The notes beneath the pieces are model-generated. The model saw only the letters and a program-made list of their open reading frames with translations. It did not search any database and had not been told where the DNA came from. From NCBI GenBank assembly GCA_951406725.2, contig OX597843.1, positions 17,236,001 to 17,300,000 on the forward strand: 64,000 nt of DNA. Reading direction: 5' to 3'. Of this stretch, positions 8,474 to 56,800 are shown piece after piece. The position numbers were made by a program, and so were the translations under genes. Source of the stretch: Octopus vulgaris (Eukaryota). Every line of letters starts with the position of its first letter. Within the stretch, counting starts at the first letter, position 1.

Positions 8474-9826
8474 CCATCATAATCATCATCACCACCATCA
8501 CCATCATCATCATCACCATCATCACCATCATCATCATCACCATCACCACCATCTTGGAACGTCTTTACAAGGTTACATTACAACAACATCATCATCATCA
8601 TCATCACCATCATCACCATCACCATCATCATCATCATCATCATCATCACCACCACCACTACCACCATCACCATCATCACCATCTTGTTGTAACGTCTATA
8701 CAAGGTTACATCATCAATGCCATCTCCGAAAGATGGTTGCACTGTACAGGAGTGTGCAGGATAAGTTTCCCTCTCCTGCCCACATAGAGAGCAATAAAGA
8801 AGATTGTACTAACCGGTGGTGCTGGTGAGCAATTCAGCAAGTGGTACAAAGGTATTTCCCAGTAAGACATCTTGATGGTTGGTGCAGGAGATGCCAGGTT
8901 CTAATCCAGTGAGGGTGAAGAAGGGAGAAAAAATGGTTTAATACAGGTTAGTGTTATGGAAGGGTTCGACTGCATATTTGTATCGGCATGCACGTGCATG
9001 TATATGCGTGTGCATGTATGTATGTAAATATATAGGAGTGGCTGTGTGGTAAGTAGCTTGCTTATGAACCACATGGTTCCGGGTTCAGTCCCACTGCGTG
9101 GCACCATGGGCAAATTTCTTCTACTATAGCCTCGGGCCAACCAAAGCCTTGGGAGTGGATTTGGTAGACGGAAACTGAAAGAAGCCCGTCATATAAATGT
9201 ATATATATATATATATTTTCCTCTGTCTTCCCTTCTCTGGATCTTTCCTTCTCCTATGTTTCCGACGAAGAGCTCTGCTCGAAAGGTTAAACCCTCCTTT
9301 CCTGAGCATCCAATAATACTATATTTGTTCCACGTCCTTGCGTTGTTGTGTTTTTTTTGTGCTTTCTTGTTTGGATTAACTATATATATATATATGTATG
9401 TATGTGTGTGTGTATATGTTTGTGTGTGTGTGTTTGTACCACCAACACCGCTTGACAACCGATGAGGGTTGTCAACGTCCCCGTAACTTAGTGGTTCGGC
9501 AAAAGAGACCGATAGAATAAGTACTGGGCTTACAAAGAATAAGTCCTGGGGTTGATTTGCTCGACTAAAGGCGGTGCTCCACCATGGCCACAGTCAAATT
9601 ATTGAAACAACTAAAAGAGTAAAAGAGTATATATACATATATATATATATATATTTTATAAATAAGAATAATATCGATATTTAAATATCGATATTATTAA
9701 GTGGCCAGCATGGGAATAAATACCATACAAAGGTAATAATTTTTTTACAACTAAAAATAAGGGTGTCTGAGAGACACCACCATGCCGAAATAGCAGTCAA
9801 ATCCCTGACTCTAAAAACCACCTTAA

Positions 9827-9869
<43 letters not shown>

Positions 9870-12800
9870 AGTTAGAAAACAGATGTAATGGATACAAATT
9901 AATTCATTAATTAATTAATTAATTAACATGTTCACCTACAATTGTTTCATTTCACAAACAAAATTAAAATAGGAAAGGGAGAGGAGGAAGAAGCGATAAG
10001 GAAGAAGCGATGAAGAGGAAGAGGAGGGTAATGACACTATCAAAACACTACCCACCCACCTCATAACTACTGACCCACAACACCCTCTCAGTGGTTCCTT
10101 ACCTGATATATTCTGGTGCCAGAGTTCCAGGTGAAGTCCTGCAGTCTCCAATTGCTCAGCTAAACAAGAGGCCATACCATTGTTGGTTGCCACCAGGGGG
10201 CAGTAGAAGTCAAAATACTGTCCAATGTTAGCATGGAAACACTTTGCCATTGTCCTAGTTGTGAAATTGCGCTGACAAACAGACAGACAAAAGGAAGATA
10301 TTAGCCATTTAGCCTCTCACACCTACCCTACAATGTCATTCTAAAAATAAACAATCACATCATCTCAAGACAACAACAAGATAATGCAAGATTAATTCTT
10401 TTAGTCTTTTACTTGTTTCAGTCATTTGACTGCGTCTATGCTGGAGCACCATCTTTAGTCGAGCAAATTGACCCCTATGACTTATTTTTTATAAGCCTAG
10501 TACTTATTCTATCATTCCCTTTTGCCGAACCGCCAAGTTACGGGGACGTAAACACACCTGCATCGGTTGTCAAGTGATGTTGGGGTGGACAAACACAGAT
10601 ATATACACACACATATATACATATATATACATATATATACAAATGAGGCCTCTTTTATTTATATACAAAATATATACTGAACTTTATAGAAGTTCCTACT
10701 GTTAATGGTTATATTTACATGCCGAAATCTACCAGTAAATAATTGTTGGTTTATTTAAAAACCATTAAAGTTATTATTTGCTCTTATTATATTACATATA
10801 TATACATATATACTAGCAGTATCGCCCGGTTTGTAAGGGAAATAACTATATAAGCATTTTTAGAGAGTTACTTCCCTCATATAATAACAAAAAAACTGCA
10901 TTAAAAACGGACAAAAATTATGGTAAAGTTTTTTTTTAAATCGTAGACGCACACTAATACGCAGAAGGGCTCGATATGAATGACGACTATAAGATACCCG
11001 CTTTTGGTTAAACTGCACCGCAAAATGTGGGAGTAGTTCGGAATCTAAATCGTAGGAGACAGACACCACACAACTTCTCTTTTATATATATAGATATTTA
11101 AATTTCATTAACAACCTGAACCACTACAATATAAGACTGTCATTTGTCTTCTCATTCGGATTCCCTGATATTTTCGCATGATTGTACCATAAATCTCTCC
11201 ACAAAACTGGATTATGAACTATATGGACATACACAAATTTTGTAAGTTCAAGACTTTTTCATTGGATCTCCAAAAATCGAACTTATCTGCGATTCTTGTA
11301 AATTTCAATAACAATCTGTTCCTCTACACGATATGGCAGTCACTTTGCCTCTTACTCGGATTTTCAGAAATTTTGCATGACTGTATCCGAAAATTTCTTC
11401 ATACAACTTGATCAAATATTCAATATGAGATAAGTTCGATTTTTGGAGATCCAATGAAAAAGTCTTGAACTTACAAAATTTGTGTATGTCCATATAGTTC
11501 ATAATCCAGTTTTGTGGAGAGATTTATGGTACAATCATGCGAAAATATCAGGGAATCCGAATGAGAAGACAAATGACAGTCTTATATTGTAGTGGTTCAG
11601 GTTGTAGACATGCATAAATTCTATAGGTTTAAAACCTTTCATCGGATCTCCACGAATCGAACTTTCTTCAATGCAGTTAATCTTACAACCTCTTTTGTAT
11701 CTACCCCTTTTGATGTTTGGGAATTCTCTGATATTTTTTCGGCTGACGAGTACGAGCCATCTGTATTCACTGCATTTTTAGTAGCTTATTAAAGATGTCC
11801 TCGTACGAAACGATCGTACCGAGATTTTGATCCATTCTTGTTGCTTTTTTCCTATATAGATATTTATATAGTAAACTTTGCTTGATGACCTGTTGAGGCA
11901 AGTGAAATCAAAATCACTGATGTGGCCGATGACAATACTACCTGATGGGCACTTATGCCAGTGGAATGTTAAAAGCACCTCCAAGCATGAAAATTGCCAG
12001 GGCTGTTGACTTGCTCCTGTACCAGTGGCACATAAAAAGCACCATTCGAGCGTGATCATTGCCAGCATGGCCTTACTGGCACTTGTGCTGGTGGCACGTG
12101 AAAATCAACATTCAAGCGTGGTCGTTGCCAGTGCCACTGGACAGGCTCCCATGCAGGTGGCACATAAAAAATACCTTTGAGTGTGGTTGTTGCGAGTACT
12201 GCCTGACTGGCTCCCGTGCAGGTGGCACGTAAAAAACACCTCTTGAGTGTGATCGTTGCCAATACCACCTGATTGGCCCTTGTGCTGGTGGCACATAAAA
12301 GGACCCACTACACTCTCGGAGTGGTTGGTGTTAGAAAGGGCATCCAGCTGTAGATCAGATAGGAACCTGGTGCAGGTCAAACCGTCCAACCCATGCCAGC
12401 ATAGAAAGCAGATGTTAAACGATGATATGTATACAATGGGCTTCTTTCAGTTTCCGTCTACTAAATCCAGTCACAAGGCTTTGGTCGGCACGAGGCTATA
12501 GTAGAAGACACTTGCCCAAGGTGCCATGCAGTGGGACTGAACCCGGAACCAGGTGGTTGGTAAGCAAGCTACATACCACACAATCACGCCTATGCCTATT
12601 CAAAACAATTTAAATAAAAAAGCTTTACATTTAACAGAGTAATCGGAATGCTTAAAGGTTGAAATCTGTAGCATTTAAACCATCCGTGACTGGCCTAAGT
12701 ATTCTAAGTTTTAAGTTCAAAATGGCCAGGTCCAGCCTCTCACACCTACCCCACAATGTCATTCTGAAAATAAGTAATCACATCATCAAAATTGTGAAGC

Positions 12801-24800: not shown

Positions 24801-27754
24801 GCAGTATTTTGTCCGTCCTGGCACTCACCACCATCATCATCATCATCATCATCATCATCGTCATCATCATCTAACGTCCGTTGTCCATGCTGGCATGGAA
24901 TGGATGGTTTGACCAGGGCTGGTAAGCTGTAAGGCTGCACCAGATTCCAGTCTGATTTGGCATGGTTTCTAAAGCTGGATGCCCTTCCTAATGCCAACCC
25001 CTCTGAGTGGGTGCTTTTACATGCCACTGGCACATGAGCCAGTTGTGTGACACCGGTATCTGCCACAACAAAGACGGCGAGCTGGCAGAAATGTTAGCAC
25101 GCCGGGCGAAATGCGTAGCCATATTTCGTCTGCCGTTACGTTCTGAGTTCAAATTCCGCCGAGGTCGACTTTGCCTTTCATCCTTTCGGGGTCGATTAAA
25201 TAAGTACCAGTTTCGCACTGGGGTCGATGTAATCGACTTAATACCTATGTCTGTCCTTGTTTGTACCCTCTATGTTTAGCCCCTAGTGGGCAATAAAGAA
25301 ATAGGTATCTGCCACAACTACGATTTCACTTGACTTGATGGGTCTTCTTCTCAAGCACAGCATACAGCCAAAGGTTTCGGTCACTTGTCATTGCCTCCAT
25401 GAGACCTAACGCTCAAAAGGTGCTTTTTCCAGGACACTGGCATCGGCCACAAGGTCGACGTTGCTTTTTGTCCTTTCAGGATCAATAAAATAAGTATCAG
25501 TCAAAAACTGGGGTCAATGTAATCAGGCCATGTCGAGGCAGTGTAGCAGAGTAGGCTCATCAAAACAGTATGATCTTGAGCTCAAAATGATCTCAAGCTC
25601 CCAGCTTCCACATCAGACTGTGGTTGGATGGAGAGAACATGCTGAGGGCCTCATCCTCTGATGGACTCAACATGGGCAATCCAATCCAATCCAATCCAAT
25701 ATGAAAGGGAAATAGGGAAAAACAGGGAAACAAAAACAAGGATGTAGATGTGACACAAGGGGTGATATGCTGATATCATACTCTTTGTTTCAGTCACTGG
25801 ACTGTGGCCATGCTGGTGCACCACCTTGAAAGGTTTAGTCGAAGAAACTGACTTTTAGTACCTATTTTTTTAAAGTCTGGTACTTATTCTAATTTCTTTA
25901 TTGCCCACAAAGGGCTAAACACAGAGGGGACAAACAAGGACAGACAAAGGGATTAAGTCGATTTCATCGGCCCCCAGTGCATAACTGGTACTTAATTTAT
26001 CGCCCCCGAAAGGATGAAAGGCAAAGTTGACCTCGGCAGAATTTGAACTCAGAACATAATGGCAGACGAAATACCGCTAAGCACTTCGCCCAGCATGCTA
26101 ACACCTCTGCCAGCTTGCCGCCTTATTCTATCACTCACTTTTACAGAACTGCTAGATTATGGGGATGTAAACAAACCAACAGCAGTTGTTGAGGTGGGAG
26201 AGGAGACAGATACAAACAGAAAGTCAGACACACATACATACATATGTGAAGGGCATTATGAATGTGAGTATATGTATATATCATCATCATCATCATCAAC
26301 ATCATTTAGCGTCTGCTTTCCATGCTAGCATAGGTTGGACGGTTCAACTGGGGTCTGGGAAGCCAGAAGGCTGCACCAGTCCCAGTCTGATCTGGCAGTG
26401 TTTCTACGGCTGGATGCCCTTCCTAACGCCAACCACTCCGTGAGTGTAGTGGGTGCTTTTTACGTGCCACCCGCACAGGTGCCAGACGGGGCTGGCAAAC
26501 GGCCACGGACGGATGGTGCTTTTTACGTGCCACCAGCACGGGGGCCAGGCGAGGCTGGCAAACGGCCACGGACGGATGGTGCTTTTTACGTGCCACCAGC
26601 ACGGGGGCCAGGTGAGGCTGGCAATGGCCACGAATGGATGGTGCTTTTTATGAGCCACCGGCACGGAGGCCAGTCAGGGCGGCACTGGCAATGGCCACGA
26701 TCAGAAGGTTCTCTTATGTGCCACCGGCACTGGTATCACAGCTGCAATTTCCATTGATGTTGATCGACTTCGATTTTGGTTCTGCTTTCTGATATATATA
26801 TATATATATATATATTCCGGCCTTTAGGCTTTTCCTTCATACACATCAGCTCAATTTGATTTGTTCTCAGTACAGATACCTCTTGTTTGTATTCCTAATT
26901 GTGTATTCTCTGTTTCTTTTGTTTCTTTGTTTTTTTGTCTTTGTTGCCATACACATTTGCTAGCTTTCTTACAAAGGGGTCTAATGCTCTTAGCTTAAAT
27001 TTTTGCGGGGGCAACCAGATCAAACCATGTTAAATGCAACTGCCCGAAATGGTCATGACTTCTGGTACTTGGCTGATGAAAAAAAAAGCCAAGAATGTCC
27101 CATCACTTTTTGCCTGTCCTTCTAATTGTTGTATCTCTTGTCTGCCTTTGTATCGTCTATCTGTCTGAAAACTTTAATCCCCTGTATTGTAGTTTTGTTC
27201 CATTTTTATATTTACACACACACACACATATATCTGTAAAATAATATGTGACAATTATTCGGTAGCCAAGATAAAACTCTGAGTTTTGGATGCCGAGGTG
27301 GAAATCCACAACACTATCTCTTCGGTTATCTGGCCGTCTGAAAAACTCAGAGTTTATCTTGGCTACCGAATAATTGTCACATATTATTTTACAGATAAAT
27401 TTCCTCTATTTACATAACATTGAGGTCTCTTTCTTTCTTTTGTTATCTTACCGTTTTTACCTATATATCTATATATATATATATCACCCTAGGATTTTTA
27501 GAAAACTCATATGTGTTTTGGCTGATGAATACGAGACACTTGTATTTGCTGCAATATTTGCAGCTTTTAATAAAGCTGTTCTTCGTATGAAACAATTGTA
27601 CTGAACAACTAATCCATTCTTGTTGCTTTTTTCTTCTTTATAATCACCCCACATTATTTTATCGCTAATACCATAAAGAATTCTGGTGCATCTAAGTTAA
27701 GTACCACATTGATGTGAATTCATTGGAACACACTTGAATCTTCATTGTTTTTAC

Positions 27755-27803: not shown

Positions 27804-30800
27804 ATATGTATTCTTTTATTCTTTTACTTGTTTCAGTCATCTGACTGCAGCCATGCTGAAGCACTATCATAAAGGGTTTTTGGGTTTTTAGTTGAAGAAA
27901 TCAACCCAATCTCTTTTGCTAAACCATTAGGTTATGGAGAAATAAACATCAACACTGGTTGTCAAGCAGTGATGGGAGGACAAACACAAGCAGACACACA
28001 CATAAATATATATATATACTAGCTGTATCGCCCGGCGTTGCTCGGGTTTGTAAGGGAAATAACTATATAAGCATTTTTAGAGATGTAAAGTATAATAGCC
28101 ATCTCAATATGGCTAACCACAAAGGGGGGTGTTACTGTAGCTTTTTACGTTCTGAGATTTAATAATAAATTTTTAGAGAGTTACTTCCCTTATATAATAG
28201 CAAAAAAATGCATTAAAAATGGGAAAAAATGATGGTAAATTTTTTTTTAAATCGTAGACTCATCGTAGACGTGCACTAATACCCAGAAGGCCTCGATATG
28301 AATCATGACTATAAGATACCCGCTTTTGGTTACACTGCACCGCAAAATGTGGGAGTAGTTAGGAATCTAAATCGTAGGAGACAGACACACAACTTGACTT
28401 TTATATATAAAGATATATGTGTTGTTGTTGGTATCCTTTTGTCTTGGGAGACAATGGAGTTGCGCATAAACTAATCCAGTCTGGTTTTTACATTTCATGT
28501 CCTCTCCAGTTTTGCGCAGGTCTGGGCAAGATGTAAGGAAATCCTGGGTAGCCCAATCGTCAGGATTCCTCACTCGACCTTGCTGACGTAGTCCAAAGGA
28601 GTGCAGAGCATTACGTTTGGCACCAGCTTGGGAGTTGCCGAAAGAGTGTTGAGTCGAACACTAAACCACCTACGGGGCTCTGTCCGGGTACTGTCAGCTG
28701 GAGCCAGCTGAGCCCGGGACTCGTGTCAGGCAGGGTCGTCATTCCCTGAAGTAGTGAAGAAAATCGCTACCCACTACCTACACACACGCACACATACGAC
28801 AGGCTTCTTTCAGTTTCCATCTACCAAATCTACTAACAGGACTTTGGTCAGCCTGAGGCTATTGCAGAAGATATTTGCCCAAAGTGCTGCACAGTGGGAC
28901 TGAACCCGGAACCATGTGGTTGAGAAGCAAGTTTCTTACCGCACAGCCATGCCTGCCCCTATGTATGTACGTATGTATGTTTATGTATATTCATATGTAT
29001 ATGTGTGTCTTTGTGTTTCTTTGGCTTCTACCACATGACAACCAGTGTTGGTTTGTTTAGTGGTTAGCTCAGTGGTTCAAACCAATAAGATATGTACCAG
29101 ACTTTAAAAATATGTATTTTAAGTTGATTTGCTCAACTAAACCCTTTGACGCTGTGCTCCAGCATGGCCACATATCAACGACTGAAACAAGTAAAAGAAT
29201 AAAAGATTATTATTAGCTGCAATAACAAGGCAATAGAGAGAAGGAGAGAAAGAGGTTATAAAGTCTTACCTGAAGCCCACACGTGCGAAGGATACCAACA
29301 CAGATGTAAGTAAAAGGGGATTCAGAGGTTGTGGTGATTGGTGGTTGATTGGTCAACTGGCAGGAGATTCAAAAGAACAAAATAAAGGAAACAGATGTAA
29401 AGAATAAAGAATTAAGGAATTGTTTCTTTTTTTCATAACAAATTTACAAAAATTATCACACAATCCAAACCACCGTTAGCTATATATGTGTATGTGTGTG
29501 TGTGTGTGTGCATGTGTACATATATATACATCATGATCATCGCTTAACATCTGATTTCCATGCAAGCATGGGTTGGATGGTTCGACCGGGGTCTGGGAAG
29601 CCAGGAGGCTGAACCAGGCCCAGTCAGATCTGGCAGTGTTTCTACAGCTGGATGCCCTTGCTAATGCCAACCACTCCGTGAGTGCAGTGGGTGCTTTTTA
29701 TGTGCCACCGGCACAGGTGCCAGGCGAGGCTGGCAAACGTCCACGATCGGATGGTGCTTTTTATGTGCCACTGGCACGGAGGCCAGGTGAGGCTGGCAAA
29801 CGGCCACGATCGGATGATGCTTTTTACGTGCCACCGGCACGGAAGCCAATCAGGGCGGCACTGGCACGTCCGTTTTCCATGCTAGCATGGGTTGGATGGT
29901 TCAACCATGGTCTGGAAAGCCAGGAGGCTGCACCAGGCTCCTGTCTGATATGGCAGTGTTTCTACAGCTGAATTGCCAGAGGAGGCTGGCAAACGGCCAC
30001 GATAAGTTGGTGTTTTTACGTGTCATATATATAACTGTGAATTTTATTCTCCTATCTGTATTCCTCTATCTACTTTTACCCTTTTTTCTTCTCTTTTATT
30101 ACTTCTGAACTGTGAACTTCCATCTAGAACTTTCATACATACTCACCTTGTCTCTGATGATGGAACACCCAGTGTACAGACATGTTAGCCTATCACTCGG
30201 GATATCCCAGAAACAGCTGTAAGACTTCAAATTCACCTTACCCTAATTAAATTATTCTAAATGACTTGAGATACTCATCCTGCCTTGGTTTTTGTTGTCC
30301 ATTTTCCTCTGATATAATATATACCTGCTAACACAGAAGCCTAATATGGACACTTACTTGTACTTGTGGCGACATTCACCCTGGACGGGTTGAGTCGGCT
30401 TCTTCTTTGGAAGAAGTTTCATGGGAATATGTGGATTTCACAAGTGGTCCCCAACAATCCTGCATGTAGGGACATCCTGTTTGCCACAGATTGTCCGCAG
30501 ATGCAGGGACAGAATGACCGAGGAGCCGCCGGTTGCCGAAACAGACACTCCGAGGATTTTCACCGGGTTGTGGCCCTAATACCACTCGGTGTCAGACCAA
30601 TCCGTCTTGAGTGGCCCTACCAGGAACCGAAGTTCCTGATGGCATAGCTCTGACACTACCCGTTGCCAGCGTCCCCACCACGGTGAGGAGGGGATAGACT
30701 TTGGGGTACCTTACCCTGAATATGGATCCCTAGCTCCAGCTTCAGCTGTGAACTTGGAACCTAAAGGATGACCAATCATAGCACTTACTTAGTGTACCTA

Positions 30801-36597: not shown

Positions 36598-36644
<47 letters not shown>

Positions 36645-37296
36645 TAATCAAACAAGAAAACACAAAAAAACACAGCAACGCGAGGACGTGGAACAAATAA
36701 AGTATTATTGGACGCTCAGGAAAAAAGGGAAGAAGGAGGGTTTAACGTTTTGAGCGGAGCTCTTCGTCGGAAACAAAGGAGAAGGAAAGATCCAGAGAAG
36801 GGAAGACAGAGGAAAAAAAATTGCTAGTGGTGCTCATATCCATTGCTAGTGGAGCACTAAGAGTACCATACGAGTGAGATCGTTGCCAGAACAACAAGCT
36901 GGCCTTCGTGCCGATGGCATGTTAAACACACCATTCGAGCGTGATCGTTACCACATCGCCTTACTGGCACTTGTGCTGGTGGCACGTGAAACATTCGAGC
37001 GAGGTCGTCGCCAGTGCCGCTGGACTGGCTCCTGTGCAGGTGGCACGTAAAAAGCACCATTTGGGCGTGGCCGTTGCCAGTACCACCACACTGGTCCTCG
37101 TGCCGGTGGCACGTAAAAGGCACCCACTACACTCTTGGAGTGGTTGGCATTAGGAAGGGCATCCAGCTGTAGAAACTCTGCCAGATCAGACTGGAGCCTG
37201 GTGCAGCCATCTGGTTCGCCAGTCCTCAGTCAAATCGTCCAACCCATGCCAGCATGGAAAGTGGACATTAAACGATGATGATGATGATGATGATGA

Positions 37297-40733: not shown

Positions 40734-40773
<40 letters not shown>

Positions 40774-43700
40774 TGATGATGATAATGATAATAATATTAA
40801 TAATGATAATGATAATAATAATAATAGTAATAATAATATTAATAATGATAATAATAATAATATATTCACAGACATGACAGAGTTGGGACCTACATACACT
40901 GGAAGCTATGCCAACATTATGGAATAACAACAGAAAAAAGATGGTATAGGCACACACCAGAAAAGGTCACAGAAAACAAGAAAGCAACCATACTCTGGGA
41001 TATGCCAATACACACAGATAGAGAAATCAAGCCAATGTTTGCTGTGTCTATGTTTCTACATCCGTTGCGATGTGATAAACATTTAAAAATACAAAACGAA
41101 TTCCGTCATCATTCACAGTCTCTTTCACTTTCACTCTCTCTCTTTCATTTTTTCTTTCTCTCTTTCTTTCTCTCTTATGTCCTCTCTGAAACATTTCAAA
41201 ACACAAAACGAAGGCTGTCATCACTCACTGTCTCTTCCATTCTCTCTCACTCTCTTTCTTTCTCTTTTAGTTTCTCTGAAACATTTAAAAGCACAAAACG
41301 AACGCCGTCACCACTGACGTCTCTTTCACTCTCTCTCTTTCTCTCTCACTCCCTCCCTTTCCTACTCTCTCACACTCTCACTCCCTCCCTTTCCTACTCT
41401 CTCACACTCTCACTCCCTCCCTTTCCTACTCTCTCTCGCTTTGCCACTTCAAAGAAGTGTGATGCACACAACAGGTACATACAAAAACAAAAAGTTAGCG
41501 TATCAATATTATTGAAAATAACAACAACATCAACAATAAATAAGGCACTCACCAATCAGCAACTTTGCTTGCAGAGGTGTGTTAGGAGGCAGCACCATTT
41601 TGTGTTGAGTTATAGCATGGAATACTGGATCAGGTAGACAGAGGGTGACACCTGTACGAGATGTCTTCATGGAAATGTCAGTAATGGCTGGTAAGAAGAG
41701 ACACAAAAACACAGAGATATAGGGTGTAAAGCAACAACATGTGGGTGGATGTATTAGTGTTTGATGTGTCTCGAAAGCAAGCTGACAGAAATTTCTAAAA
41801 AACTTTGTTATTAATGATATTTTTTAGGCATATTTGGCATTCAAATGTTTTTCTTTTGCCCTTGTTTATAAGTTGTTTATAAATTTAACCTTTAAAGGTA
41901 TTTTTATAATATGCTGGCCATTGATAAAATTTTTTCGAAAATTTTATCCTATATTAGATGTAAATTTTCGGTTGAAGCCTTGGCTGCTATTTCTAGTGGG
42001 TTGAACGGCCTATTATGGCCGTTCCTAAATTTTGCTGTTGAATTTATTAATGGTCTCTGACTATTTACTTTTTTCCCACTAGGCCGCTGGTGGCAAATAA
42101 TTTCTGCTGAATTTTTTGCCACCATATATTGATTAATTATGAATTTTCTGTTTAATTCCGAAATGGAATCGGCAGCTTATATTTGCTGCCGATAAATTTG
42201 GCGCAAGTACGATGATTTGAAAATTTTAGGTCAGATATAGCCAAGACAGTAGTGGTGCTGCCTCGTGAAAATATCTCTCCCGTCTGGCTTACCTTACTGA
42301 TGAATTTATTGGCCTATGGAAGATTAGCTTGATTTAATTTAATCAAGTTGATTTAGCATTAAAAAATAGACGAAACGATGCATTGTATAAGGTATTACAG
42401 GGTAAATGTTTTTTTAATTTTCTGGTTTACGGAATTAATATTGTTTTGCGGTTGAAGCCTTGGCTGCTTTTTCTAGTGGATTGAACGGCCTATTATGGCC
42501 GTTCCTAAATTTTGCTGTTGCATATATATATATATATATATAAAGAAGCCCGTCGTATATATGTATATATATATATATATATATGTATGTGTATATATTT
42601 GTGTGCCTGTGTTTGTCCCCCCGACATCGCTTGACAACCGACGCTGGTGTGTTTACATCCCCGTAACTTAGCGGTTCGGCAAAAGAGACCGAGAGAATAA
42701 GTACTAGGCTTACAAAGAATAAGCCCTGCGGTCGAGTTGCTCGACTAAAGGCGGTGCTCCAGCATGGCCACAGTCAAATGACTGAAACAAGTAAAAGAGT
42801 AAAGGGTATATATGTATATGTGTGTCTTTATTTTCTGAGCAATACCATCATTGGTTATAGATGTTCGATGGACCAATTAAAGGTTCACCGAATGTCTGGT
42901 GGTGAGGAGTATGACAAGGGGATGTAGGGGGGTTATTGTAATCTAGGTGCAGTAGATACAACCATTTATTTTTGTTTGACGCACTGCTAAAATAAAAATT
43001 TTCTCAATGCATAGGTGTAGGAGTGGCTGTGTGGTAAGTAGCTTGCTTACCAACCACATGGTTCCAAGTTCAGTCCCACTGCGTGACACCTTAGGCAAGT
43101 GTCTTCTACTATAGCCTCGGGCCGACCAAAGCCTTGTGAGTGGATTTGGTAGGCGAAAACTGAAAGAAGCCCATCTTGTATGTATGTGTGTGTGTGTGTG
43201 TGTATGTGTGTGTATGTTTGTGTGTTTGTATTTGTCCCCCCAACATCGCTTGACAACCGATGCTGGTGTGTTTACGTCCCCGTAACTTAGCGGTTCGGCA
43301 AAAAAGACCGATAGAATAAGTACTAGGCTTGCAAAGAATTACTCTTGGGGTCGATTTGCTCAACTAAAAGTGGTGCTCCAGCATGGCCGCAGTCAAATGA
43401 CTGAAACAAGTAAAAGAGTAAAAGAGTAAAGAGTAATGCTATGTATATCTTTTGCTGATATATGAAGGTGCATGTCTATGTGTTTAGAGTGTCGGGTTTG
43501 CAATCATGAGGTTGTGAGTAGGTGCATGTCTATGTGTTTAGAGTGTCGGGTTTGCAATCATGAGGTTGTGAGTTCAATTCCAGGATCAGGTTGTGTGTTG
43601 CGTTCTTGAGCAAGACACTTTATTTCATGTTACTCCGGTTCACTCATCAGTAGAAAATGAGTGCGACACCACTAGTGCCAAGTTGTACCAACCTTTGCTT

Positions 43701-46700: not shown

Positions 46701-48532
46701 GAAAAGTAGTCGTAGGATATGCTGTATATAACCGGCACTCTGTCATTTATGATGATGAGGGTTCCAGTTGATCCGATCAATGGAATGGCCAGCTTGTGAA
46801 ATTAACGTGCATGTGACCGGGCACTCCACAAACACACGTACCCTCAACGTAGTTCTCAGGGAGATTCAGCATGACACAAGTGTGACGAGACTGGCCCTTT
46901 GAAATACAGGTTCTATTCGTTTTTGCCAGTCGAGTGGAGTGGAGCAACTTGAAATAAAGTGTCTTGCTCAAGAACACAACACCTCGCCAGGAACTGAACT
47001 CACGACTTAGCGATTGTGAGTTGAATGCCCCTAACCACTAAGCCACACACATTCACCATGTTGTGTATATGGAATATAAAATTATAGTATTAACATCCTA
47101 ATATAGAAGATGTCAAAGGTAACATGATTTAAGTATTTCGTCTGCCGTTACGTTCTGAGTTCAAATTCTGCCGAGGTCGACTTTGCCTTTCGGGGTCGAT
47201 AAATTATGTACCAGTTACGCACTGGGGTCGATATAATCGACTTAATCCGTTTGTCTGTCCTTGTTAGTCCCCTCTGTGTGTAGCCCCTTGTGGGTAGTAA
47301 AGAAATAGGTAACATGATTTAAGTAGCTACTATAATTAGTTGCTATAGCTACTATAATTATAGCTACTATAATTAGCTACTATAATTAGCTACTATAGCT
47401 ACTATAATTAGCTACTATAATTGCAGCTACTATAATTAGGTACTATAGCTACTATAATTAGCTACTATATCTACTATAATAATAGATTACTATAATAGCT
47501 ACTATAATTATAGATTTTATAGGTGAAGATATAGCGGTGTGGTTAAGAAACTCACTTTGCAAACATGTGGTTTCTGGTTCGGTCCTACTACATGGTACTT
47601 TAGGAAAATAACTTCTCCTATAAGACCAAAGATTTGTGAGTGAATTTAGTAGGTGGAAATTGTGTGGAAGCCTGTCTTATGTGGTTATATCTATACATGT
47701 GTGTTCGTGTTTATGTTTGTTCCAACCACCACAGCTTGACAACCGGTGTCGATTTGTTTACATCCCCATGACTTAGTGGTTCAGCAAAAGAGACCAACGG
47801 AACAAGTACCAGATTAAAAGTAAGTACTGGGGCAAATTTGTTTAACTAGAAATTCAAGGGGGTGCTCCAGCATGGCCACAGTCCAATGACTGAAACAAGT
47901 GAAAGATAAAAGAAGATAACTATAGAGTAAAAAAATCACCAAAACTTACCAATATAGTCTTTACAAATACCTTCATCGGTGGTTGTTGAGGAGCTGGTGT
48001 TTCTAGCAAAGAAGATAATAGTCAAAGTGATTTGTCATTCTGATATGTTATAATCATCAACATCATAGCAACCAGAGTATTAACTACACACACACACAAA
48101 CATATATATATACACACACACACATCACAGAATTGTGCAGGCCATTGCACACCACTGGGCACAATGCACTTTCAAATTTGTGTTGACTGCACCATTCTTT
48201 TCCCCATCTTGGCCCAAACTGCTCGACCAATTCGTCTTCCCGTCATTGTGCAGGCCTCTCAAGAGGCCTTTTCTGATCTTTTGGACACCACTTGGTAACT
48301 GCACAGGTCCACCTGGTTGTCTATGAAACTTGTGACATAATTGGCCCAGCAGAGCTTGTGTTTTCAGAACTCTTTGCGATCACATCATTCATTCTGCTCC
48401 ATTCTTGAATTATCTCATTTCGAATTCCAGGTTCAGTCCCACTGTGTGGCAGATGGGGCAAGTGTCTTCTACTAAAGATTTGGGCTGCTCAAAGCCTTGT
48501 GAGTGGAATTGGTAATGAAAAGTGAAAGAAGC

Positions 48533-48575
<43 letters not shown>

Positions 48576-51500
48576 TCATTGTTTAACGTCCGGTTTCCAT
48601 GCTGGCATGGGTTGGACTGTTTGACTGAGGACTGGCGAACCAGATGGTTGCACCAGGCTCCAATCTGATCTGGCAGAGTTTCTACAGCTGGATGCCCTTC
48701 CTAATGCCAACCACTCTGAGAGTGTAGTGGGTGCTTTTACATGCCGCCGGCACGAGGGCCAGTCAGGCGGTACTGGCAACATCTATGCTCAAATGGTGTT
48801 TTTACGTGTCACCTGCACAGGAGCCAGTCTAGGGGCACTGGCAACGCCCTCACTCGAAAGTTATTTTTCACATACCACCGGCACAGAGGCCAGTCGATGC
48901 GACACTGGTATCGATCACGCTCGAATGGTGCTTTTGATGTGCCACCAGCATGGGGGCCAGTCAGCAGCCCTGGCAATGATCACGCTCGGATGGTGCTCTT
49001 AGTGCTCCACTAGCACAGATTCCAGTCAGGTGGTGCTGTCATCGAATTTGATTTTGATTTCACTTGCCTCAACAGGTCTTCGCAAGCAGAGTTTAGTGTC
49101 CAATGAGGGAAAGGCATGCATAAGTGGGCTATTTCGCCCCTGGCATAGTCCATGAGATTATGGTCTCACTTGGCTTGCCGGGTCTTCTCAAGCACAGCAT
49201 ATTTCCAAAAGTCTCGGTCTCTAGTCACTTCCATGGTAAAGCCTAAAGTTAGAAGGTCGTGATTCACCACTTCATCCCAGGTCTTCCTGGGTCTACTCCT
49301 TCCACAGTTTCACAACCGCTAGGGTTTGACACTTTTTCACACAGCTATCCTCATCCATTCTCACCACATGACCATACCAGCGCAGTCATCTCTCTTGCAC
49401 ACCACATCTGATGCTTCTTAGGTCCAACTTTTCTCTCAAGGCACTTACACTCTGTCAAGTATGTACACTGACATTACACATCCATCGGATCATACTGGCT
49501 TCATTCCTTGCGAGCTTACACATGTCCTCAGTAGTCTCATACCTTAGGAATGAGAACTCAGGTTTGAAATTTCCCCAAGACACCTGATGAAGGCAGGAGG
49601 GTATATCAGCAACAAAGATGAGGACAAACATCCTTCAAATGTAAATAATAAAAATGATGCAAAATAAAAATAAAAAACAAAAAGACACACTTACATCAGA
49701 GATTGGTGAAGATTGGGGAATTGTTGGCGCAAGAGGGACGAGCGTCTTTCAATTGTGACTTGCTGTAGCGTGGACACCTGGTTACATGTAAATTACACAG
49801 TCAGACAGGAATAAGTAATCGTAATGGTTTCAAATTTTGGCACAGGGCCAAGGCTAGTAATTTTGAGGGGAGGGGGATGAATAAATTACATTGACTCCAG
49901 CGGCGAGCTGGCAGAAATGTTAGCACGCCGGGCAAAATGCGTAGCCGTATTTCGTCTGCCGTTGCGTTCTGAGTTCAAATTCCGCCGAGGTCGGCTTTGC
50001 CTTTCATCCTTTCGGGGTCGATTATATAAGTACCAGTTACGCACTGGGGTCGATTTAATCGACTTAATCCGTTTGTCCTCTCTGTGTTTAGCCTCTGGTG
50101 GGTAGTAAAGAAATAGGTATTTCGTCTGCCACTACGTTCTGAGTTCAAATTCCGCTGAGGTCAACTTTGCCTTTCATCCTTTCGGGGTCGATTAAATAAG
50201 TACCAGTTACACACTGGGGTCGATATAATCGACTTAATCCGTTTGTCTGTCCTTGTTTGTCCTCTCTGTGTTTAGCCCCTTGTGGGTAGTAAAGAAATAA
50301 GTATTTCATCTGGTACTCGTTTTATTGACCTTGAAACAATAAAAGATAAGGTTGACCTCGGTGGAATTTGAACTCAGAATGTAAAAACAGATGAAATACT
50401 GGTAAGCATTTTGCCTGGTATGCTAACCATTCTGCCAGCTGACTACCATCATAACATACTGAGCAGAATAAATGATAAAATATGTAAAATCAACAAAAAA
50501 AAAACCAAGAAATGTTGTCAAATTTACCTGCTCTATAGATCCCATCGCCAATAACACCTTCAGCTGTCCATGTTGGTAGTTGGTGAGTGGGTCCACAATA
50601 GGCATATAGCCATCATGGGCTACAATCGGGTACTGTGGAGAGAGGAAATATATAAAAGAGACATAGGTGAAACAAAATATATTTTGTTGAACCAATGATC
50701 ATGGATTAACTGTCTATATAAAATGTGTGTGTGTGTGTGTGGTTGAAATTTACAAAAAACAAAAGACAAAGATAGGTGAACGAACAACAAGCAGGTGTAT
50801 CAGTTTGACACTCAGGGAGAATGGAAAAGTCTTTGACGTTTCGAGCCTATGCTCTTTGACAGAAAGAGATGAGTGGGAAAAAAATGGAGAGAGAGAGAGA
50901 GAAAAACAGTCGTTATTGAAAATGTGCTTTCTTGCAGCTCTAAGGGTTTTTAACTCTTATTTCTAGCAATATAGGTACTACTCAGCACACTCAGTAACAA
51001 TTAGTGACAAGTGAAAATTTCCTTCTCGGTTTTAAATTGTGTATACCTGCCTTCGTTGTTATATATAATATATATATATATATATATATCATCGTTTAGC
51101 ATCCGCTTTCCATGCTAGCATGGGTTGGACGGTTCAACTGGTGTCTGGGAAGCCCGAAGGCTGCGCCAGGCCCAGTCTGATCTGGCAGTGTTTCTACGGC
51201 TGGATGCCCTTCATAACGCCAATCACTCCGTGAGTGTAGTGGGTGCTTTTTATGTGCCACCGGCACAGGTGCCAAACGAGGCTAGCAAACGGCCACGATC
51301 GGATGGTGGTTTTTACATGCCACAGGCACGGGGGCCAGTCGAGGCAATGCTGGCAACAGCCACATTCAGATGGTGCTTTTTACGTGCCACCGGCATGGGG
51401 GCCAGACGAGGCTGGCAAACGGCCACGATCGGATGGTGCTTTTTACGTGCCACCGGCACAGGGGCCAGGCCAGGCTGGCAACGGCCACAATTGGATGGTG

Positions 51501-53231
51501 CATTTTACGTGCCACCGGCACGGAGGCCGGTCAGGGCGGTGCTGGCAACGGCCACATTCGGATGGTTCTCTAACGTACCATCGGCACTGGTATCACAGCT
51601 ACAATTTCCACTTATGTTGATCGATTTCGATTTTGAAATGAAAATCAAAATCGAAATCGATCAACATCAGTGGAAATTGTAGCTGTGATACCATAAATGA
51701 TTAGGTAAATATATTCAATAAGAATATTATATACTGAATTTATATTAAGTGCTCCATTGTATAAAAAAATATTAATACTATTAAAGGATTTATATATTTA
51801 ATATGAGCGACATATACATATATTTTTTAATAATATATTATTATTATTATTAATAGAAATATTAAAATTACTAAGTCTCTCTAAAGGAGATTACGGCAGC
51901 GTTACTGGAAATTAATAGTTATCGCCATACTTATATGGCAGTCTTATAAATATATGACTAAAGCTGTCGCTGATTAGCTCCAAGAGGCCACCGCCTCAAG
52001 CTAGCTATTTGACACACAACCTGCGTCCATTATAAACCTTTGAACAGGGAGGTCAGCCGCTTCATCCTGCTAGTCAGACAGCTGCAGACATGTTTCAGGG
52101 TATTTGCCCTTTATCAATGCAGCGTAGTCAGACCCAGCAGGTGTCGCTACTGACTGTCTCTGTTCGAAGAATCTATTTACCTAGTTTCAGTGGAATACAT
52201 CCACTTGTTTTCAATAATAGAAATATTAAAATTACTAAGTCTCTCTACGCTGCATTGATAAAGGGCAAATACCCTGAAACATGTCTGCAGCTGTCTGACT
52301 AGCAGGATGAAGCGGCTGACCTCCCCTGTTCAAAGGTTTATAATGGACGCAGGTTGTGAGTCAAATAGCTAGCTTGAGGCGGTGGCCTCTTGGAGCTAAT
52401 CAGCGACAGCTTTAGTCTTATAATTTATAAGACTGCCATATAAGTATGGCGATAACTATTAATTATTATTAATATAAGGAAATCAATACCGAATTCTTCA
52501 CAAAGATATACCTATATGAAAGACCTTATGTATTAAAAATATATATAAATAAATAAATATAAAAATATAAATATAATGTATAAAATAAATTTGAAAGTTT
52601 AAAAGTTTTGAATTGAGTTTTTAAGCATCTTATGATCGTTTCGCAGAAGTGCTGTCCCTATAATGAAATCCTATATTGATAAGCATTTATAGACAACCCT
52701 TCTGCTCTTCAGAGATATAAAATATAAATATTGTATAATATATCGAATGATATTTTTAAAAATTTGGATTAAAATTGTAAAATACACACACACACAGATA
52801 TATACACATTGAGAATTTGGGGAGATTTCTGAAGAAATGAAATAAAAATTAAAAAAACAGTGATGTAAAGTATAAACAACTTACTGGAGACTTCAGCAAT
52901 GTCGTCACAATTCTTTGGTTACGAAGCGAGAGGTAGAATTGATGGAGGCTCAGCTTCACCACACCAATTAACTGCCATATATAATAATAATAATAATAAG
53001 AATAATAATAATAATAATAATAATCATCATCATCATCATCATCGTTTAGCATCCGCTTTCCATGCTAGCATGGGTTGGACGGTTCAACTGGGGTCTGGGA
53101 AGCCAGGAGGCTGCACCAGGCCCAGTCTGATCTGGCAATGTTTCTACGATCAAACTGGGCCTGGTGCAGCCTTCTGGCTTCCCAGACCCCAGTTAATAAT
53201 AATAATAATAATAATAACAATAACGATAATG

Positions 53232-53264
<33 letters not shown>

Positions 53265-53846
53265 GTAATAATAATAACAATAATAATAATAATAGTCCTG
53301 ATGCAGTACCAGGCAGTGGCTCTCATGGTTTCTGATCTTAACTGACTGGAAGTGTTATCATGTACATTGTTTTGTCTTGGTATAAAAGATGGGCTACAGC
53401 AAATATTCTGCTCAATACCAGAGATTTGCTTGTCAGTTGTTTGACCGTAACCAGTTGAGCATGTCCCTCAGTGGCTGATGATATGTGCATCTCTGATCAC
53501 GAGCAGAAGTAGTGGGGGAGCATCATAGCCATGTGTTAAGAGGGATTCTTTGGGGTTTGAATAATTCACCTTTCGAAACATGGGTGTTTCATTCATCATC
53601 CTAAAGCAACCCTTATTCAGGGACCTTTTGAGCAGGATGGGCTACTCGACCTGAAGAAAATTCTAACTGGGCCCCACCTGCAAGGTCATGTGCTGTTTAT
53701 CATATGAGATCACCATGTCGCGCACATATGGTTGTGATGCATGTGCCTGGTGTACCCTTATCAGACAGGTAGTCACGATGGGTATACTGGGCTTTGTAAA
53801 TTTGTACCCCAGTGTCACTTTGATGGCATGCACTGCTCTCTCACTC

Positions 53847-53884
<38 letters not shown>

Positions 53885-56800
53885 GATGGGCTACAGCAAA
53901 TATTCTGCTCAATACCAGAGATTTGCTTGTCAGTTGTTTGACCTTAACCAGTTGAGCATGTCCCTTAGTGGCTGACGATATGTGCATCTCTGATCACGAG
54001 CAGAAGTAGTGGGGGAGCATCATAGCCATGTGTTGAGAGGGATTCTTTGGGGTTTGAATAATTCACCTTTCGAAACATGGGTGTTTCATTCATCATCCTA
54101 AAGCAACCCTTATTCAGGGACCTTTTGAGCAGGATGGGCTACTCGACCTGAAGAAAATTCTAACTGGGCCCCACCCGTAAGGTCATGTGCTGTTTATCTT
54201 GATATGAGATCACCATGTCGCGCACATATGGTTGTGATGCATGTGCCTGGTGTACCTTTATCAGACGGGTAGTCATGATGGGTATATTGGGCTTCGTATA
54301 TTTTACCCGTGTCACTTTGATGGCATGCACTGCTCTCTCACTCAATAATAATAATATCATCATCATCATAATTTTAACATGCCCTTTTCCATACCTATCT
54401 AAGTGGATGGTGTTTATTGAGGCAGATTTTCCATGGTCGGATGCCCTTCCTGTCACCAACTCTCACCTCTTTCCAAGCAAAATAATATTTATCCTGGAGG
54501 AGGAGGAGAATCCCTTCTATTAAAGGCACATTGCCTGAAATTTTGTGGTAAGGGTCTAGTTTAATAGTTTCCAACCTTTTCACAGTGGGTTCCCAACCCT
54601 TTTATTTAAATGAGCTTTCCCATGGATTCCTTTTGATATGCTTAGCCCTATATATATCTCTTTTACTTGTTTCAGTCATTTGACTGTGGCCATTCTGGAG
54701 CACTGCCTTTAGTTGAGCAAATCAACTATTGCCTCCATAAAATATTTATGAAGAGGAGGCGTAGTGGTTGCAAAACAAGCTTCTTAACTATATAGCCATG
54801 TCTGCACAAGAACAAAACACAACAAGCCTCTAAAAACTCACCTTGTCATCAGACACTTCCAATGATGTTGTTGTTTTATCCCAGACCTCTATAATTAGGT
54901 AATTGTTGCGAATTCTCTCCAAAAAGTTGGCTGTGACAAAAACTGGTGAAACCTGTTAGGATGAGTAAAAAAATACTTGATATATCATCATTTTCATCAT
55001 CATTTTAACATTCCCTCTTCCCTTTTGGCAGGGTCAGATGGAATTTGTTGAAGCAGATTTTCTACTGCTGGGTGCCCTTCCTGTCACCAATCCTTAGCTG
55101 TTTCTAAGCAAGGTATTATTTCCCAATGGCCAGACATGCTTTAGCTGAAGACTATAAACCCCAAAGGGCCACTTGCAAAAGCAACGAAAAAGCTTTTTGG
55201 AACAAACAAAAATAAAAGAAAATTTTAAATGAATGGAAACTGAATCAGAGCGTGTGTTAAATATATATAGGCAATATCACTCTTTACATTATTTACATTT
55301 GACGGACATAAAAGTGCCCATGCAGTGTCAAGTAAAAGTGTTCGTGTAGTGCCACATAAGAGCACCCAGCACACTCTGACTCCATAAATGGTAAAAGTGA
55401 AAATTATAAATTATCAAGGTGGCTTCAGTTCTATATTTAAGAGATGAGGAATTATTTACATTATTCACATTATTTACATTATTTACATTTGACAGATATT
55501 TGTCCCCATCTTGTTTGTTGTTAACACAACATTTCATCTGATGTACCCTCCAGCCTTCTTCAGGTGTCTTGGGGAAATTTCGAACCTGGGTTCTCATTCC
55601 TATGGTATTTTTTGATGGTATTATTATTATGCAGTTCTATATTTAAGAGATGAAGAATTAGGTACATTATTTACATTATTTACATTCGATGGATATTTGT
55701 CCTCATCTTGTTTGTTGTTAACACAACGTTTCGGCTGATATACCCTCCAGCCTTCTTCAGGTGTCTTGGGGAAATTTCGAACCTGGGTTCTCATTCCTAT
55801 GGTATTTTTTGATGGTATTATTATTATGCAGTTCTATATTTAAGAGATGAAGAATTAGGTACATTATTTACATTATTTACATTCGATGGATATTTGTCCT
55901 CATCTGGTTTGTTGTTAACACAATGTCTCGGCTGATATACCCTCCAGCCTTCTTCAGGTGTCTTGGGGAAATTTCAAACCTGGGTTCTCATTCCTAAGGT
56001 ATTTTTTGACATTATTATTATTATACAGTTCTATATTTAAGAGATGAGGAATTATGTACATTATTTACATTCGATGGATATTTGTCCTCATCTTGTTTGT
56101 TGTTAACACAACGTTTCGGCTGATATACCCTCCAGACTTCATCAGGTGTCTTGGGGAAATTTCAAACCTGGGTTCTCATTCCTAAGGTATTTTTTGACAT
56201 TATTATTATTATACAGTTCTATATTTAAGAGATGAGGAATTATATACATTATTTACATTCGATGGATATTTGTCCTCATCTTGTTTGTTGTTAACACAAC
56301 GTTTCGGCTGATATACCCTCCAGCCTTCTTCAGGTGTCTTGGGGAAATTTCAAACCTGGGTTCTCATTCCTAAGGTATTTTTTGACATTATTATTATTAT
56401 ACAGTTCTATATTTAAGAGATGAGGAATTATGTACATTATTTACATTCGATGGATATTTGTCCTCATCTTGTTTGTTGTTAACACAACATTTCATCTGAT
56501 ATACCCTCCAGCCTTCATCAGGTGTCTTGCGGAAATTTTGAACCTGGGTTCTCATTCCTAAGGTATTCTTCGATGTTATTATGATTATTATGATTATTAT
56601 TATTATTATTGTTGTTCAGGTCACTGCTTGGAATCAAACTCGGAATCTTGGGGTTAGTAGCCCGCACTCTTAACCACTACGCCATATGCCCGTGGGTATA
56701 TCAGCCAAAACGTTGTGCTAACAACAAACAAGATGAGCACAAATATCCGTCAAATGTAAATAATGTAAATAATGTATTAAGGTGGCTTGTTCTGACTGTC

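Follow-up and report, generated by a model that had tools for sequence, protein, structure and literature searches.

Eight hammerhead families and their carriers in a 64-kb window of the Octopus vulgaris genome

Hammerhead folds recur between positions 9258 and 56526 of the window, by which we mean the whole analysed stretch of 64,000 nucleotides of Octopus vulgaris DNA. Are these folds genuine, which elements have spread them, and can their cores be expected to cleave? An initial annotation of the sequence had proposed a large radiation of non-autonomous ribozyme elements dependent on Penelope-like elements (PLEs). Altogether, we consider it likely that the eight families present are type I folds spread by PLEs, five clans being truncated protein-coding 3' ends and three being ORF-less repeats that probably borrow PLE enzymes, and that a palindromic stem III probably enables dimer pairing and cutting.

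Hammerhead sites and their frequency above chance

We located 20 hammerhead-fold sites in this interval, of which only about 8-10 were judged intact; a damaging change is seen in the F copy, in the C copy on the plus strand, in four of the G copies and in each of the four H copies. Families A and A2 are sisters within one clan and 77% alike. Below, the bracketed number gives the site coordinate, that is the position of core nucleotide 3.

9258..9292, + strand: H1 fold (9262); core CCGACGA, the U4C family state; stem III damaged (AGGU); stub 9216-9386
11737..11824, + strand: family A hammerhead (11743), intact; stem III ACGAUCGU; N17 at 11818; it ends a 5'-truncated, partly inverted PLE stub, 11101-11870
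27517..27605, + strand: family A2 hammerhead (27522), intact; stem III ACAAUUGU; stub 27484-27642
30150..30225, + strand: family B hammerhead (30154), intact core, weakened stem II; stem III ACAGCUGU; stub 30033-30270
33239..33288, - strand: family C hammerhead (33281) with the G3-C8 core GUGAACA, forming the left arm of a head-to-head pair; N17 is U; stem III AAUAUU
33316..33366, + strand: right-arm hammerhead of family C, with G3 at 33323 and C8 at 33328; its stem II has a broken first pair; one-sided tail follows to about 33504
33619..33654, - strand: H-clan copy (33650), decayed; canonical 5' core, G12 changed to A
36740..36774, - strand: H1 copy (36770), decayed; U4C core, G12 changed to A; stub 36637-36820
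42290..42394, + strand: family D hammerhead (42297); long stem II; stem III ACGAUGCAUUGU
49539..49649, + strand: truncated family G remnant (49584); 3' half of the core missing
50831..50866, - strand: H2 copy (50862), decayed; family core CUGUNGA (A6U), here also G8 changed to A; stub 50754-50906
52081..52123, - strand: family E hammerhead (52117), intact, with helices of canonical size; U3-A8 core, stem III ACAUGU, loop II CAAAUA
52249..52291, + strand: family E hammerhead, second inverted copy (52255)
52627..52716, - strand: family F hammerhead (52712), with A in place of G16.2; stem III is ACGAUCGU in 14/22 family copies; element pieces 52457-52783 and 51693-51852
55426..56600, - strand: family G array of six head-to-tail units of 188-197 nt, each with a loop-less (ACGU) minimal hammerhead (55563, 55760, 55957, 56145, 56333, 56521); three judged intact (56333, 56145, 55760)
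56620..56686, - strand: family G head with A-box- and B-box-like motifs (Pol III-like)

Every site named in the initial annotation proved to be present with the stem III given for it. The inverted or tandem setting that it described for most sites applies to A, C, D, E and G, all others being single stubs.

Folds of this kind might arise by chance in an AT-rich, repeat-rich genome, and half of the window copies are indeed damaged, while Rfam returned 0 matches for the window at gathering score, no hammerhead family among 58 weak ones and no hammerhead match for family E alone. Against this, a window scan with positions 3 and 8 free gave 6 matches, all with a palindromic stem III, vs 0.1 per dinucleotide shuffle (20 shuffles), and one with positions 3, 4, 6, 7 and 8 free and the palindrome required gave 7 vs 0.1; hence the densities in native and shuffled sequence, a comparison suggested with the initial annotation, are not similar. 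In a 600-kb sample, 20/20 matches had a Watson-Crick 3-8 pair (12 C-G, 5 U-A, 3 G-C), whereas shuffles of the sample gave 1.5 matches each, scattered over many 3-8 pairs. When five core positions were freed, the sample yielded 22 distinct sites, every one of them in one of five core classes, vs 1.2 matches per shuffle. An A3-U8 core, permitted in both scans, was not seen in the window or the sample.

Genome-wide, four exact patterns gave at least 52,000 motifs, and the 600-kb sample leads to an estimate of roughly 70,000-97,000, bearing out the very high numbers anticipated by the annotation. Individual patterns were counted 22,729 times vs 2,563 in the controls, and 39,036, 18,928, 8,355 and 4,993 times vs 0, with the reservation that repeat families inflate such counts and that copies are not independent events. 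For G3-C8 we used an exact pattern because a loose one was too noisy (45,128 vs 31,390). Given the shuffle and reversed-pattern controls, and the position in pseudo-LTRs, chance is an extremely improbable explanation.

The class itself is known. Minimal hammerheads (min-HHRs) of PLEs, their palindromic stem III and their abundance have been published (Cervera and de la Pena 2014, PMC4209133), and the octopus is an extreme new example, with at least 52,000 motifs vs the 9,000 reported there for Xenopus tropicalis. The metazoan PLE min-HHRs of that paper are, like those described here, of type I with a short stem I, a longer stem II, an extra nucleotide after A9 and a palindromic stem III; they likewise form many unrelated consensus families per genome, mainly as single truncated copies, with opposite-strand pairs 100-700 bp apart and a U3-A8 variant. 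A search of the supplement text gave no octopus. Covariance models have detected 235 hammerheads in the giant squid (PMC6962438).

Protein-coding and ORF-less carriers

In families A/A2, B, C, H1 and H2 we see the truncated 3' ends of PLEs that encode reverse transcriptase (RT) and GIY-YIG. The A, A2, C and H2 hammerheads belong to pseudo-LTR ends of PLEs whose frames, at other places in the genome, are open over 950-1,200 codons; the PLEs that end in H1 and B are older, and their frames are broken. Around the RT + GIY-YIG frame, the pseudo-LTR lies on both sides in A, A2, H1 and H2, and on the 3' side in C and B. The order hammerhead-ORF-hammerhead on one strand was found for A2 (L233, L234), H2 (L323, L324, L326, L327) and H1 (L363), and both element ends were sampled for A (L231, L232), with an ORF of 1,090-1,091 codons. 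In 12/12 loci chosen by their endonuclease (L339-L350), family C follows the end of the ORF at a distance of ~1 kb and on its strand; among loci picked from the hammerhead side, 3/9 had the ORF link (L331, L332, L337). For family B, L368 has the hammerhead collinear with a decayed endonuclease end that is also present in L366 and L165.

In Pfam, the H2 frame scores above cut-off for RVT_1 and weakly for GIY-YIG (E 0.007), the C frame scores above cut-off for GIY-YIG, its RT motifs being recognised by eye, and the family A frames gave no match; a PDB sequence search with the C frame gave none either. C and H2 frames are ~25% identical to each other, and H2 is ~24% identical to A. The probable identity of the family A frame as a PLE rests on motifs and homologues. 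In a comparison by diagnostic motifs, it shares its DKT and RW motifs, CxCX5C linker, (TA)n targets, and the CxxC and CxH that surround the last E and N, with C-terminal EN+ PLEs of the Hydra clade (Craig et al. 2021, PMC8557442), but is longer (~1,070 aa, with an Asn-rich insert) than the elements described there, which are under 3 kb. C and H2 compare, again by diagnostic motifs, with Neptune/Nematis-type PLEs (CX2-5CxxC linker; PMC8557442), and differ from them in their G3-C8 and A6U hammerhead cores.

E, D and G, in contrast to the protein-coding families, look non-autonomous, and their insertion pattern suggests that they likely borrow PLE enzymes. E and D are ORF-less head-to-tail units of 365 nt (L360) and 484 nt (L355, L356), respectively, each with one type I hammerhead; predicted circular folds have z = -10.3 for E and -4.7 for D vs 40 dinucleotide shuffles. 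In the window, D occurs as a 1.3-unit partial tandem (41965-42598), and the E pair (about 51790-52463) belongs to the 365-nt retrozyme-like unit and splits a family F element. With its ORF-less tandem unit, canonical helix sizes and strongly self-paired predicted circle, E resembles animal non-LTR retrozymes (Cervera and de la Pena 2020, PMC7229834; Li et al. 2026 preprint) but differs in its U3-A8 core; D is similar to them as well, but has a long stem II and slightly exceeds their range of 150-450 bp. None of the sequencing runs listed as holders is recorded as RNA, and on run contigs of uncertain RNA origin family E displayed no ends and no informative joints. A third retrozyme-like family was located in L081.

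In family G, the Pol III-like head is joined to the hammerhead in 40/40 scored matches, and no four-T run occurs until 55403. The likeness to A- and B-boxes was judged against the box consensus sequences. A promoter-like head followed by a hammerhead unit, in tandem, recalls the SINE-like hammerhead repeats of schistosomes (promoter + hammerhead; PMC6765202), from which G differs in its loop-less minimal hammerhead and in a head for which neither ARAGORN nor Rfam made a tRNA call.

An ORF link was found in 0/28 loci for F, 0/39 for D and 0/23 for G, most loci having only 1.5 kb of flank; the same test missed B (0/40) until longer loci revealed the link. No location in an RT + GIY-YIG pseudo-LTR was found for D, E, F or G. 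We also considered telomere targeting by F, several best matches lying near chromosome ends, but the four loci read have common flanks, and we thus attribute their position to segmental duplication.

A model in which each of the eight families is a short non-autonomous ribozyme element, of retrozyme or MITE-like kind, that only borrows PLE proteins would agree with the non-coding window copies of 100-800 nt, with the tandem units of E and D, with the head of G and with the proposal that animal retrozymes are non-autonomous PLE derivatives (bioRxiv 10.64898/2026.07.22.740005). It is nevertheless very improbable as a general account, and refuted for the six sub-families A, A2, B, C, H1 and H2, which extend upstream into RT + GIY-YIG frames. 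The PLE-type hammerheads and large radiation of the initial annotation are upheld, its non-autonomous elements probably narrowing to E, D and G.

Variant cores

The family core is kept in 63/67 copies of A, 22/22 of A2, 20/24 of B, 105/123 of C, 22/23 of D, 32/34 of E, 18/22 of F and 12/19 of G, in copy sets that are biased to young, intact members because they were drawn by best-hit and exact-pattern searches. A three-way junction core of CUGANGA, GAAA and UH is found in A, A2, B, D, F and G, and in E with the known U3-A8 pair. The recurring core noticed by the initial annotation holds across family copies; what it had left unflagged is that the consensus departs from the textbook sequence in C (GUGAACA), E (UUGAUAA), H1 (CCGACGA) and H2 (CUGUNGA). 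C (G3-C8), H1 (U4C) and H2 (A6U) lack the textbook core, and we treat them as variants rather than standard members.

G3-C8, present in 115/123 family C copies, is borne by young intact PLEs with 4,993 exact copies genome-wide, as is A6U with position 7 free in H2 (18,928 exact copies), and U4C is borne by the older PLE of H1 (8,355). In sequencing-run contigs (four runs, four organism codes), the C core positions 33323-33329 have no listed difference that reaches 5%. We rejected the idea that stem I of family C is an inverted-repeat artefact, both of its strands lying within one arm and single-arm copies having it too. An alternative register of H2 with a U3-G8 core was likewise discarded, since by eye stems I and II fail to form and the variable base would land on position 4. 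We found no report of G3-C8 or A6U as a natural state in the part of the literature covered here, and the main text of PMC4209133 mentions no family core with G3-C8, A6U or U4C.

These three very abundant lineages with fixed core changes, missed by standard searches, are predicted to retain some self-cutting. Tentatively, with somewhat less than even confidence, we propose that currently active animal PLEs use naturally unreported cores, namely A6U and a G3-C8 core in which the general-acid pair is swapped. Each would be fixed in intact masters, present in thousands to tens of thousands of copies and still cleaving, likely as protein-assisted dimers. A G3-C8 core has been engineered in the lizard PLE Poseidon, where C3G/G8C partly restores cleavage in vitro (PMC11167929); in young family C it is the natural state.

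Published tests find that A6 and U4 changes reduce activity, A6C cleaving in vitro at <0.1 per min and U4C being much reduced (PMC3088659). The variant cores A6U, U4C and perhaps G3-C8 could accordingly mark crippled ribozymes that hitch-hike on successful PLEs. Cleavage would then be dispensable, and the fold would persist because it serves as a signal for protein binding or priming, or through recent descent only. This reading fits catalytic mutants of a PLE hammerhead, which leave insertion in vitro unaffected (PMC11167929), as well as H2, the most numerous family counted, which bears the change expected to be most harmful and in some copies has G at position 17 (L232, L270). However, G3-C8 requires two changes that restore a known tertiary pair. 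Every base moreover occurs at position 7 of H2 (38 T, 27 A, 22 C and 13 G by hand count among the first 100 matches listed) while positions 3-6 are fixed in 25/27 copies with a four-nt loop. The remainder comprise one canonical core and no further class, and the set excludes four false matches that lay in the flanks of family F. The upstream flanks of H2 also differ between subfamilies. On balance, we regard hitch-hiking as possible but doubtful.

If cleaving variant cores are indeed in use, ~60% of the hammerheads counted here would be invisible to CUGANGA-based searches, and published animal ribozyme counts would be large underestimates. Three of the four Watson-Crick 3-8 versions would in that case occur in a single genome, together with U4C and A6U. 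Descriptor searches should leave positions 3, 4, 6 and 8 free. The added value lies in this natural core series within one host: sister lineages that differ at positions 3/8, 4 and 6 and have intact cognate proteins would permit a direct test of the role of cleavage rate in transposition, and of weak-core rescue by the PLE protein.

Palindromic stem III and a proposed route of spread

Stem III (positions 15.2-16.2 plus loop III) is a perfect palindrome in 65/67 copies of A, 18/24 of B, 117/123 of C, 32/34 of E, 14/22 of F and 9/19 of G. It is perfect in 10/22 copies of A2 and 4/23 of D, where most others are self-complementary through G-U pairs; the annotation's claim that every stem III is self-complementary therefore stands for most families, and for D mostly only in this looser sense. 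Double changes that keep the palindrome occur in family A (ACGAUCGU in 55/67 and ACAAUUGU in 10/67 copies) and in family E (ACAUGU/ACGCGU/ACUAGU), with paired changes at 52281/52282 of equal depth in three runs. Alone, stem III self-duplexes are very weak when shortest (AAUAUU -0.2, ACGU -1.7 kcal/mol).

We propose the following route, some steps of which are visible in the sequence. Full PLEs are seen to have their RT + GIY-YIG frame between two pseudo-LTRs, each bearing the family hammerhead. By analogy with Frangieh et al. (2024), the PLE protein would nick AT-rich DNA and begin reverse transcription immediately 3' to the hammerhead, at either of two sites; this would account for the two 3' ends of family C, where 54/126 copies stop at the short end and 53/126 continue through the tail. 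Their Poseidon element of Anolis carolinensis (PMC11167929) similarly has AT-rich targets, a hammerhead in the pseudo-LTR and a one-sided tail from two reverse-transcription starts, of 30-40 nt vs about 55-60 nt in family C. Two same-strand copies per transcript (pLTR-ORF-pLTR, or tandem E, D and G) may then pair their stems III, and cleavage after N17 would free a unit-length RNA, probably slowly and aided by the PLE protein. In their sequence, PLE lineages have separately fixed C3-G8, U3-A8, G3-C8, U4C and A6U, activity being predicted; that cores differ yet the Watson-Crick 3-8 pair, the GAAA box and the palindrome are kept suggests selection on the fold. As to the part of cleavage, RNA-seq reads ending at the PLE hammerhead cut site were absent in Poseidon (PMC11167929), and Naiad PLEs thrive without canonical hammerheads (PMC8557442).

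Insertions are mostly short, 5'-truncated and often inverted, and PLE copies that we sampled also have a one-sided tail; hence hammerhead stubs greatly outnumber full elements. Single and head-to-head stubs, as most in the window are, are likely dead by-products, because each strand has one sense copy and head-to-head pairs would bury it in a long hairpin. The 5' ends of C and H1 cluster close to the hammerhead, and some short forms may thus amplify independently.

Hammerhead sites in the window and in the genome

The window has a G+C content of about 40%, is rich in microsatellites and in short repeats that resemble octopus SINEs, and belongs to a host genome of 2.80 Gb. Every hammerhead site named in the initial annotation was found, and positions 9258-56526 hold 20 sites in eight families, designated by letters (A and A2 form one clan, as do H1 and H2). 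Additional sites and neighboring features are as follows.

5469 and 6110: further hammerhead sites, family G
5345-5536 (minus strand) and 5945-6201: further copies of family G; in one, a piece of the head is inverted
6290-6385 (plus strand): lone hammerhead, decayed, with its core at 6299 and ACAAUUGU as stem III; a second copy is absent among the loci compared
33619: H copy, its TA end abutted by family C
34559-34914 and 43841-44065 (both minus strand): decayed protein remnants of a family A-type Penelope-like element (PLE) (tblastn E ~1e-9)
51693-52783: family F element enclosing an inverted family E pair

Some 8-10 of these 20 copies appear intact, and the remainder are altered at G12, G8, 15.2/16.2 or a stem II pair. 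In the proposed comparison with shuffled sequence, a descriptor leaving positions 3 and 8 free matched the window six times (four C-G, two U-A, stem III palindromic in all six) vs 0.1 times per local dinucleotide shuffle. A second descriptor, in which the palindrome is obligatory and only G5, A9 and GAAA are fixed, gave seven matches vs 0.1 per shuffle. The core is kept in most genome copies of A (63/67), A2 (22/22), B (20/24), C (105/123), D (22/23), E (32/34), F (18/22) and G (12/19), in fetched sets that are biased to young copies. Rfam returned no match to any of these window hammerheads. The window holds a real, dense population of an already known kind of ribozyme motif.

The very high genome-wide numbers anticipated from the window are borne out. 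The pattern of a canonical core whose stem III is a loop-less ACGU occurs 22,729 times vs 2,563 for the reversed pattern, the exact family C pattern 4,993 times vs 0 in the control, and the H clan pattern (stem II and GAAACGU only) 39,036 times vs 0, including 18,928 A6U and 8,355 U4C motifs. Summing the ACGU-pattern excess, C, U4C and A6U yields ~52,400 motifs, ~32,300 (62%) of which lack the CUGANGA box, counts that are to be taken as those of repeat copies and hence of non-independent events. A first look adds a further 700-2,000 candidates for each of the families A, B, D, E and F. A sample of sixty 10-kb stretches at even spacing contains 22 distinct strict sites (seven within one array) vs 1.2 per shuffle, which scales to roughly 70,000-97,000 hammerheads per genome with a wide sampling error. 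For other animals, published reports give ~9,000 motifs of the minimal type for Xenopus tropicalis (PMC4209133), >6,000 motifs for a coral, divided among 16 families (PMC7229834), 14,255 axolotl retrozymes (2026 preprint) and 235 giant squid hammerheads, the last by covariance models (PMC6962438). At least six more families with palindromic stem III of 8-11 nt, absent from the window, occur at loci L241, L242, L244, L245, L248 and L083.

Families at the ends of Penelope-like elements

The initial annotation regarded the families as non-autonomous and PLE-dependent. The non-autonomous part of this reading holds for three of the eight (E, D and G), but not for A/A2, B, C and H1/H2, which are ends of PLEs encoding reverse transcriptase (RT) and GIY-YIG. 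Family A forms the pseudo-LTR ends of PLEs whose open frames span 1,090-1,091 codons, and A2 those of PLEs whose frames span 947-984 codons; the order hammerhead-ORF-hammerhead is present in two loci (L233 and L234). The family A frame carries RT motifs together with DKT, CxCX5C, CxxC and CxH, which by motif comparison are signatures of the Hydra clade, and Pfam gave zero matches to the family A frames. A homologue of one PLE frame, labelled Octopus sinensis, is 67% identical across 19% of the query, in line with a host that is likely an octopus. Family B runs collinear with an endonuclease end in L368, decayed and of similar type, which L366 and L165 share.

Family C lies ~1 kb behind a frame on the same strand in all 12 loci chosen by endonuclease, and shows same-strand frame linkage in three of nine chosen from the hammerhead side; the frame reaches 1,025 codons and has both RT motifs and a GIY-YIG domain. 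None of the C copies examined has an upstream same-strand pseudo-LTR. Two discrete 3' ends occur (54/126 and 53/126 copies), a PLE tail signature for which two reverse-transcription starts are reported to account (PMC11167929). H2 is found at both pseudo-LTRs of four near-identical PLEs (1,050-1,200 open codons, RVT_1, weak GIY-YIG), and H1 occupies the two ends of a frameshifted relative that is older (L363). Protein identity is only ~24-25% for C vs H2 and for A vs H2, which implies three or more deep lineages.

As a side observation, C copies in L281-L310 show a branch-point-like motif, a pyrimidine tract and an AG 20-45 nt upstream of the core, directly before stem I, and many short C copies begin at this putative splice-like site. 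An intron end at helix I is described for Drosophila Penelope (PMC4209133).

Variant catalytic cores

The core of family C reads GUGAACA, with G3 and C8 occurring jointly in 115 of 123 copies and in 12/12 ORF-linked loci, accompanied by a UUU triplet and by A15.2-U16.2. In contigs of four sequencing runs, which carry four organism codes, no difference of ≥5% is listed at the C core positions. The family E core is UUGAUAA (U3-A8 in 33/34 copies), a variant reported previously (PMC4209133, PMC3088659), and that of H1 is CCGACGA, whose U4C is described in a viroid (PMC3088659). H2 has CUGUNGA in 25 of 27 four-nt-loop copies, a tally that counts the window's own G8A copy and one further row, assigned by position 7, among the 25, omits four false matches in F flanks, and leaves one copy canonical (CTGAAGA). 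All four bases occur at position 7. Across the unbiased genome sample, positions 3 and 8 pair Watson-Crick in all matches, which fall into five core classes from the 256 permitted.

Since engineered C3G/G8C is reported to restore activity in part, PLE hammerhead included (PMC11167929, PMC8495972), cleavage by family C is plausible by analogy. For A6C, a cleavage rate of <0.1 per min is given (PMC3088659). The literature searched yielded no natural G3-C8 or A6U family and no octopus hammerhead survey; Lunse 2017, Hammann 2012, Arkhipova 2017, supplements and Repbase lie outside that search and could list variants. At the level of sequence, the new element is the fixation of variant cores in young, intact PLEs.

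ORF-less units, proposed spread and other repeats

Family E is a 365-nt ORF-less unit, arranged head to tail, whose helices have canonical sizes (circular fold z = -10.3), and family D a 484-nt unit (z = -4.7); both resemble retrozymes. Most D copies (e.g. L355) have an A-C apposition in place of the usual G10.1-C11.1. Another retrozyme-like unit of 353-359 nt occurs seven times in L081:2300-4900; its hammerhead is canonical, ACCGGU forms stem III, and the circular fold has z = -5.8. Family G has a head with A-box- and B-box-like motifs, and all 40 scored matches show this head attached to the hammerhead; the head scores as tRNA in no tRNA search, a T4 run is absent along the window's six-unit array, and the fold of the unit is not unusual (z = -1.7). 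Family F has a frame in none of 28 loci, with short flanks; one copy is contained in a duplicated block that occurs close to several chromosome ends (L187, L193-L195).

The anatomy of the elements, their pseudo-LTR position, truncation and inversion, the tail and double changes that keep the palindrome are seen directly. We propose that PLE protein would nick AT-rich DNA and prime internally, that the two stems III would pair when one transcript carries two copies from the same strand, and that cleavage after N17 would be slow and protein-assisted; E, D and G may borrow PLE enzymes. Head-to-head pairs (C and E in the window) would fold into long hairpins, and are likely insertion by-products rather than dimer partners; the C pair at 33217-33388 gave a weak miRNA-like match. 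Published reports argue against a function: hammerhead mutants of a lizard element are described as unimpaired in insertion in vitro, RNA-seq ends were reportedly not seen at its cut site (both PMC11167929), and Naiads are listed without canonical hammerheads (PMC8557442).

Other repeats in the window are as follows.

1414-2155, 38664-39417 and 53382-54356: SINE-like head-to-tail runs (180-184 bp x4 twice; 497 bp x2)
14570-24528: 10-kb minisatellite of C and A only, ~330 copies of a 22-bp unit
44375-46705, 59755-60322 and 61371-63635: tandem arrays with units of 36, 108 and 123 bp
51589-51690 and 53091-53189: two 100-nt near-perfect inverted repeats, a hammerhead being noted in neither
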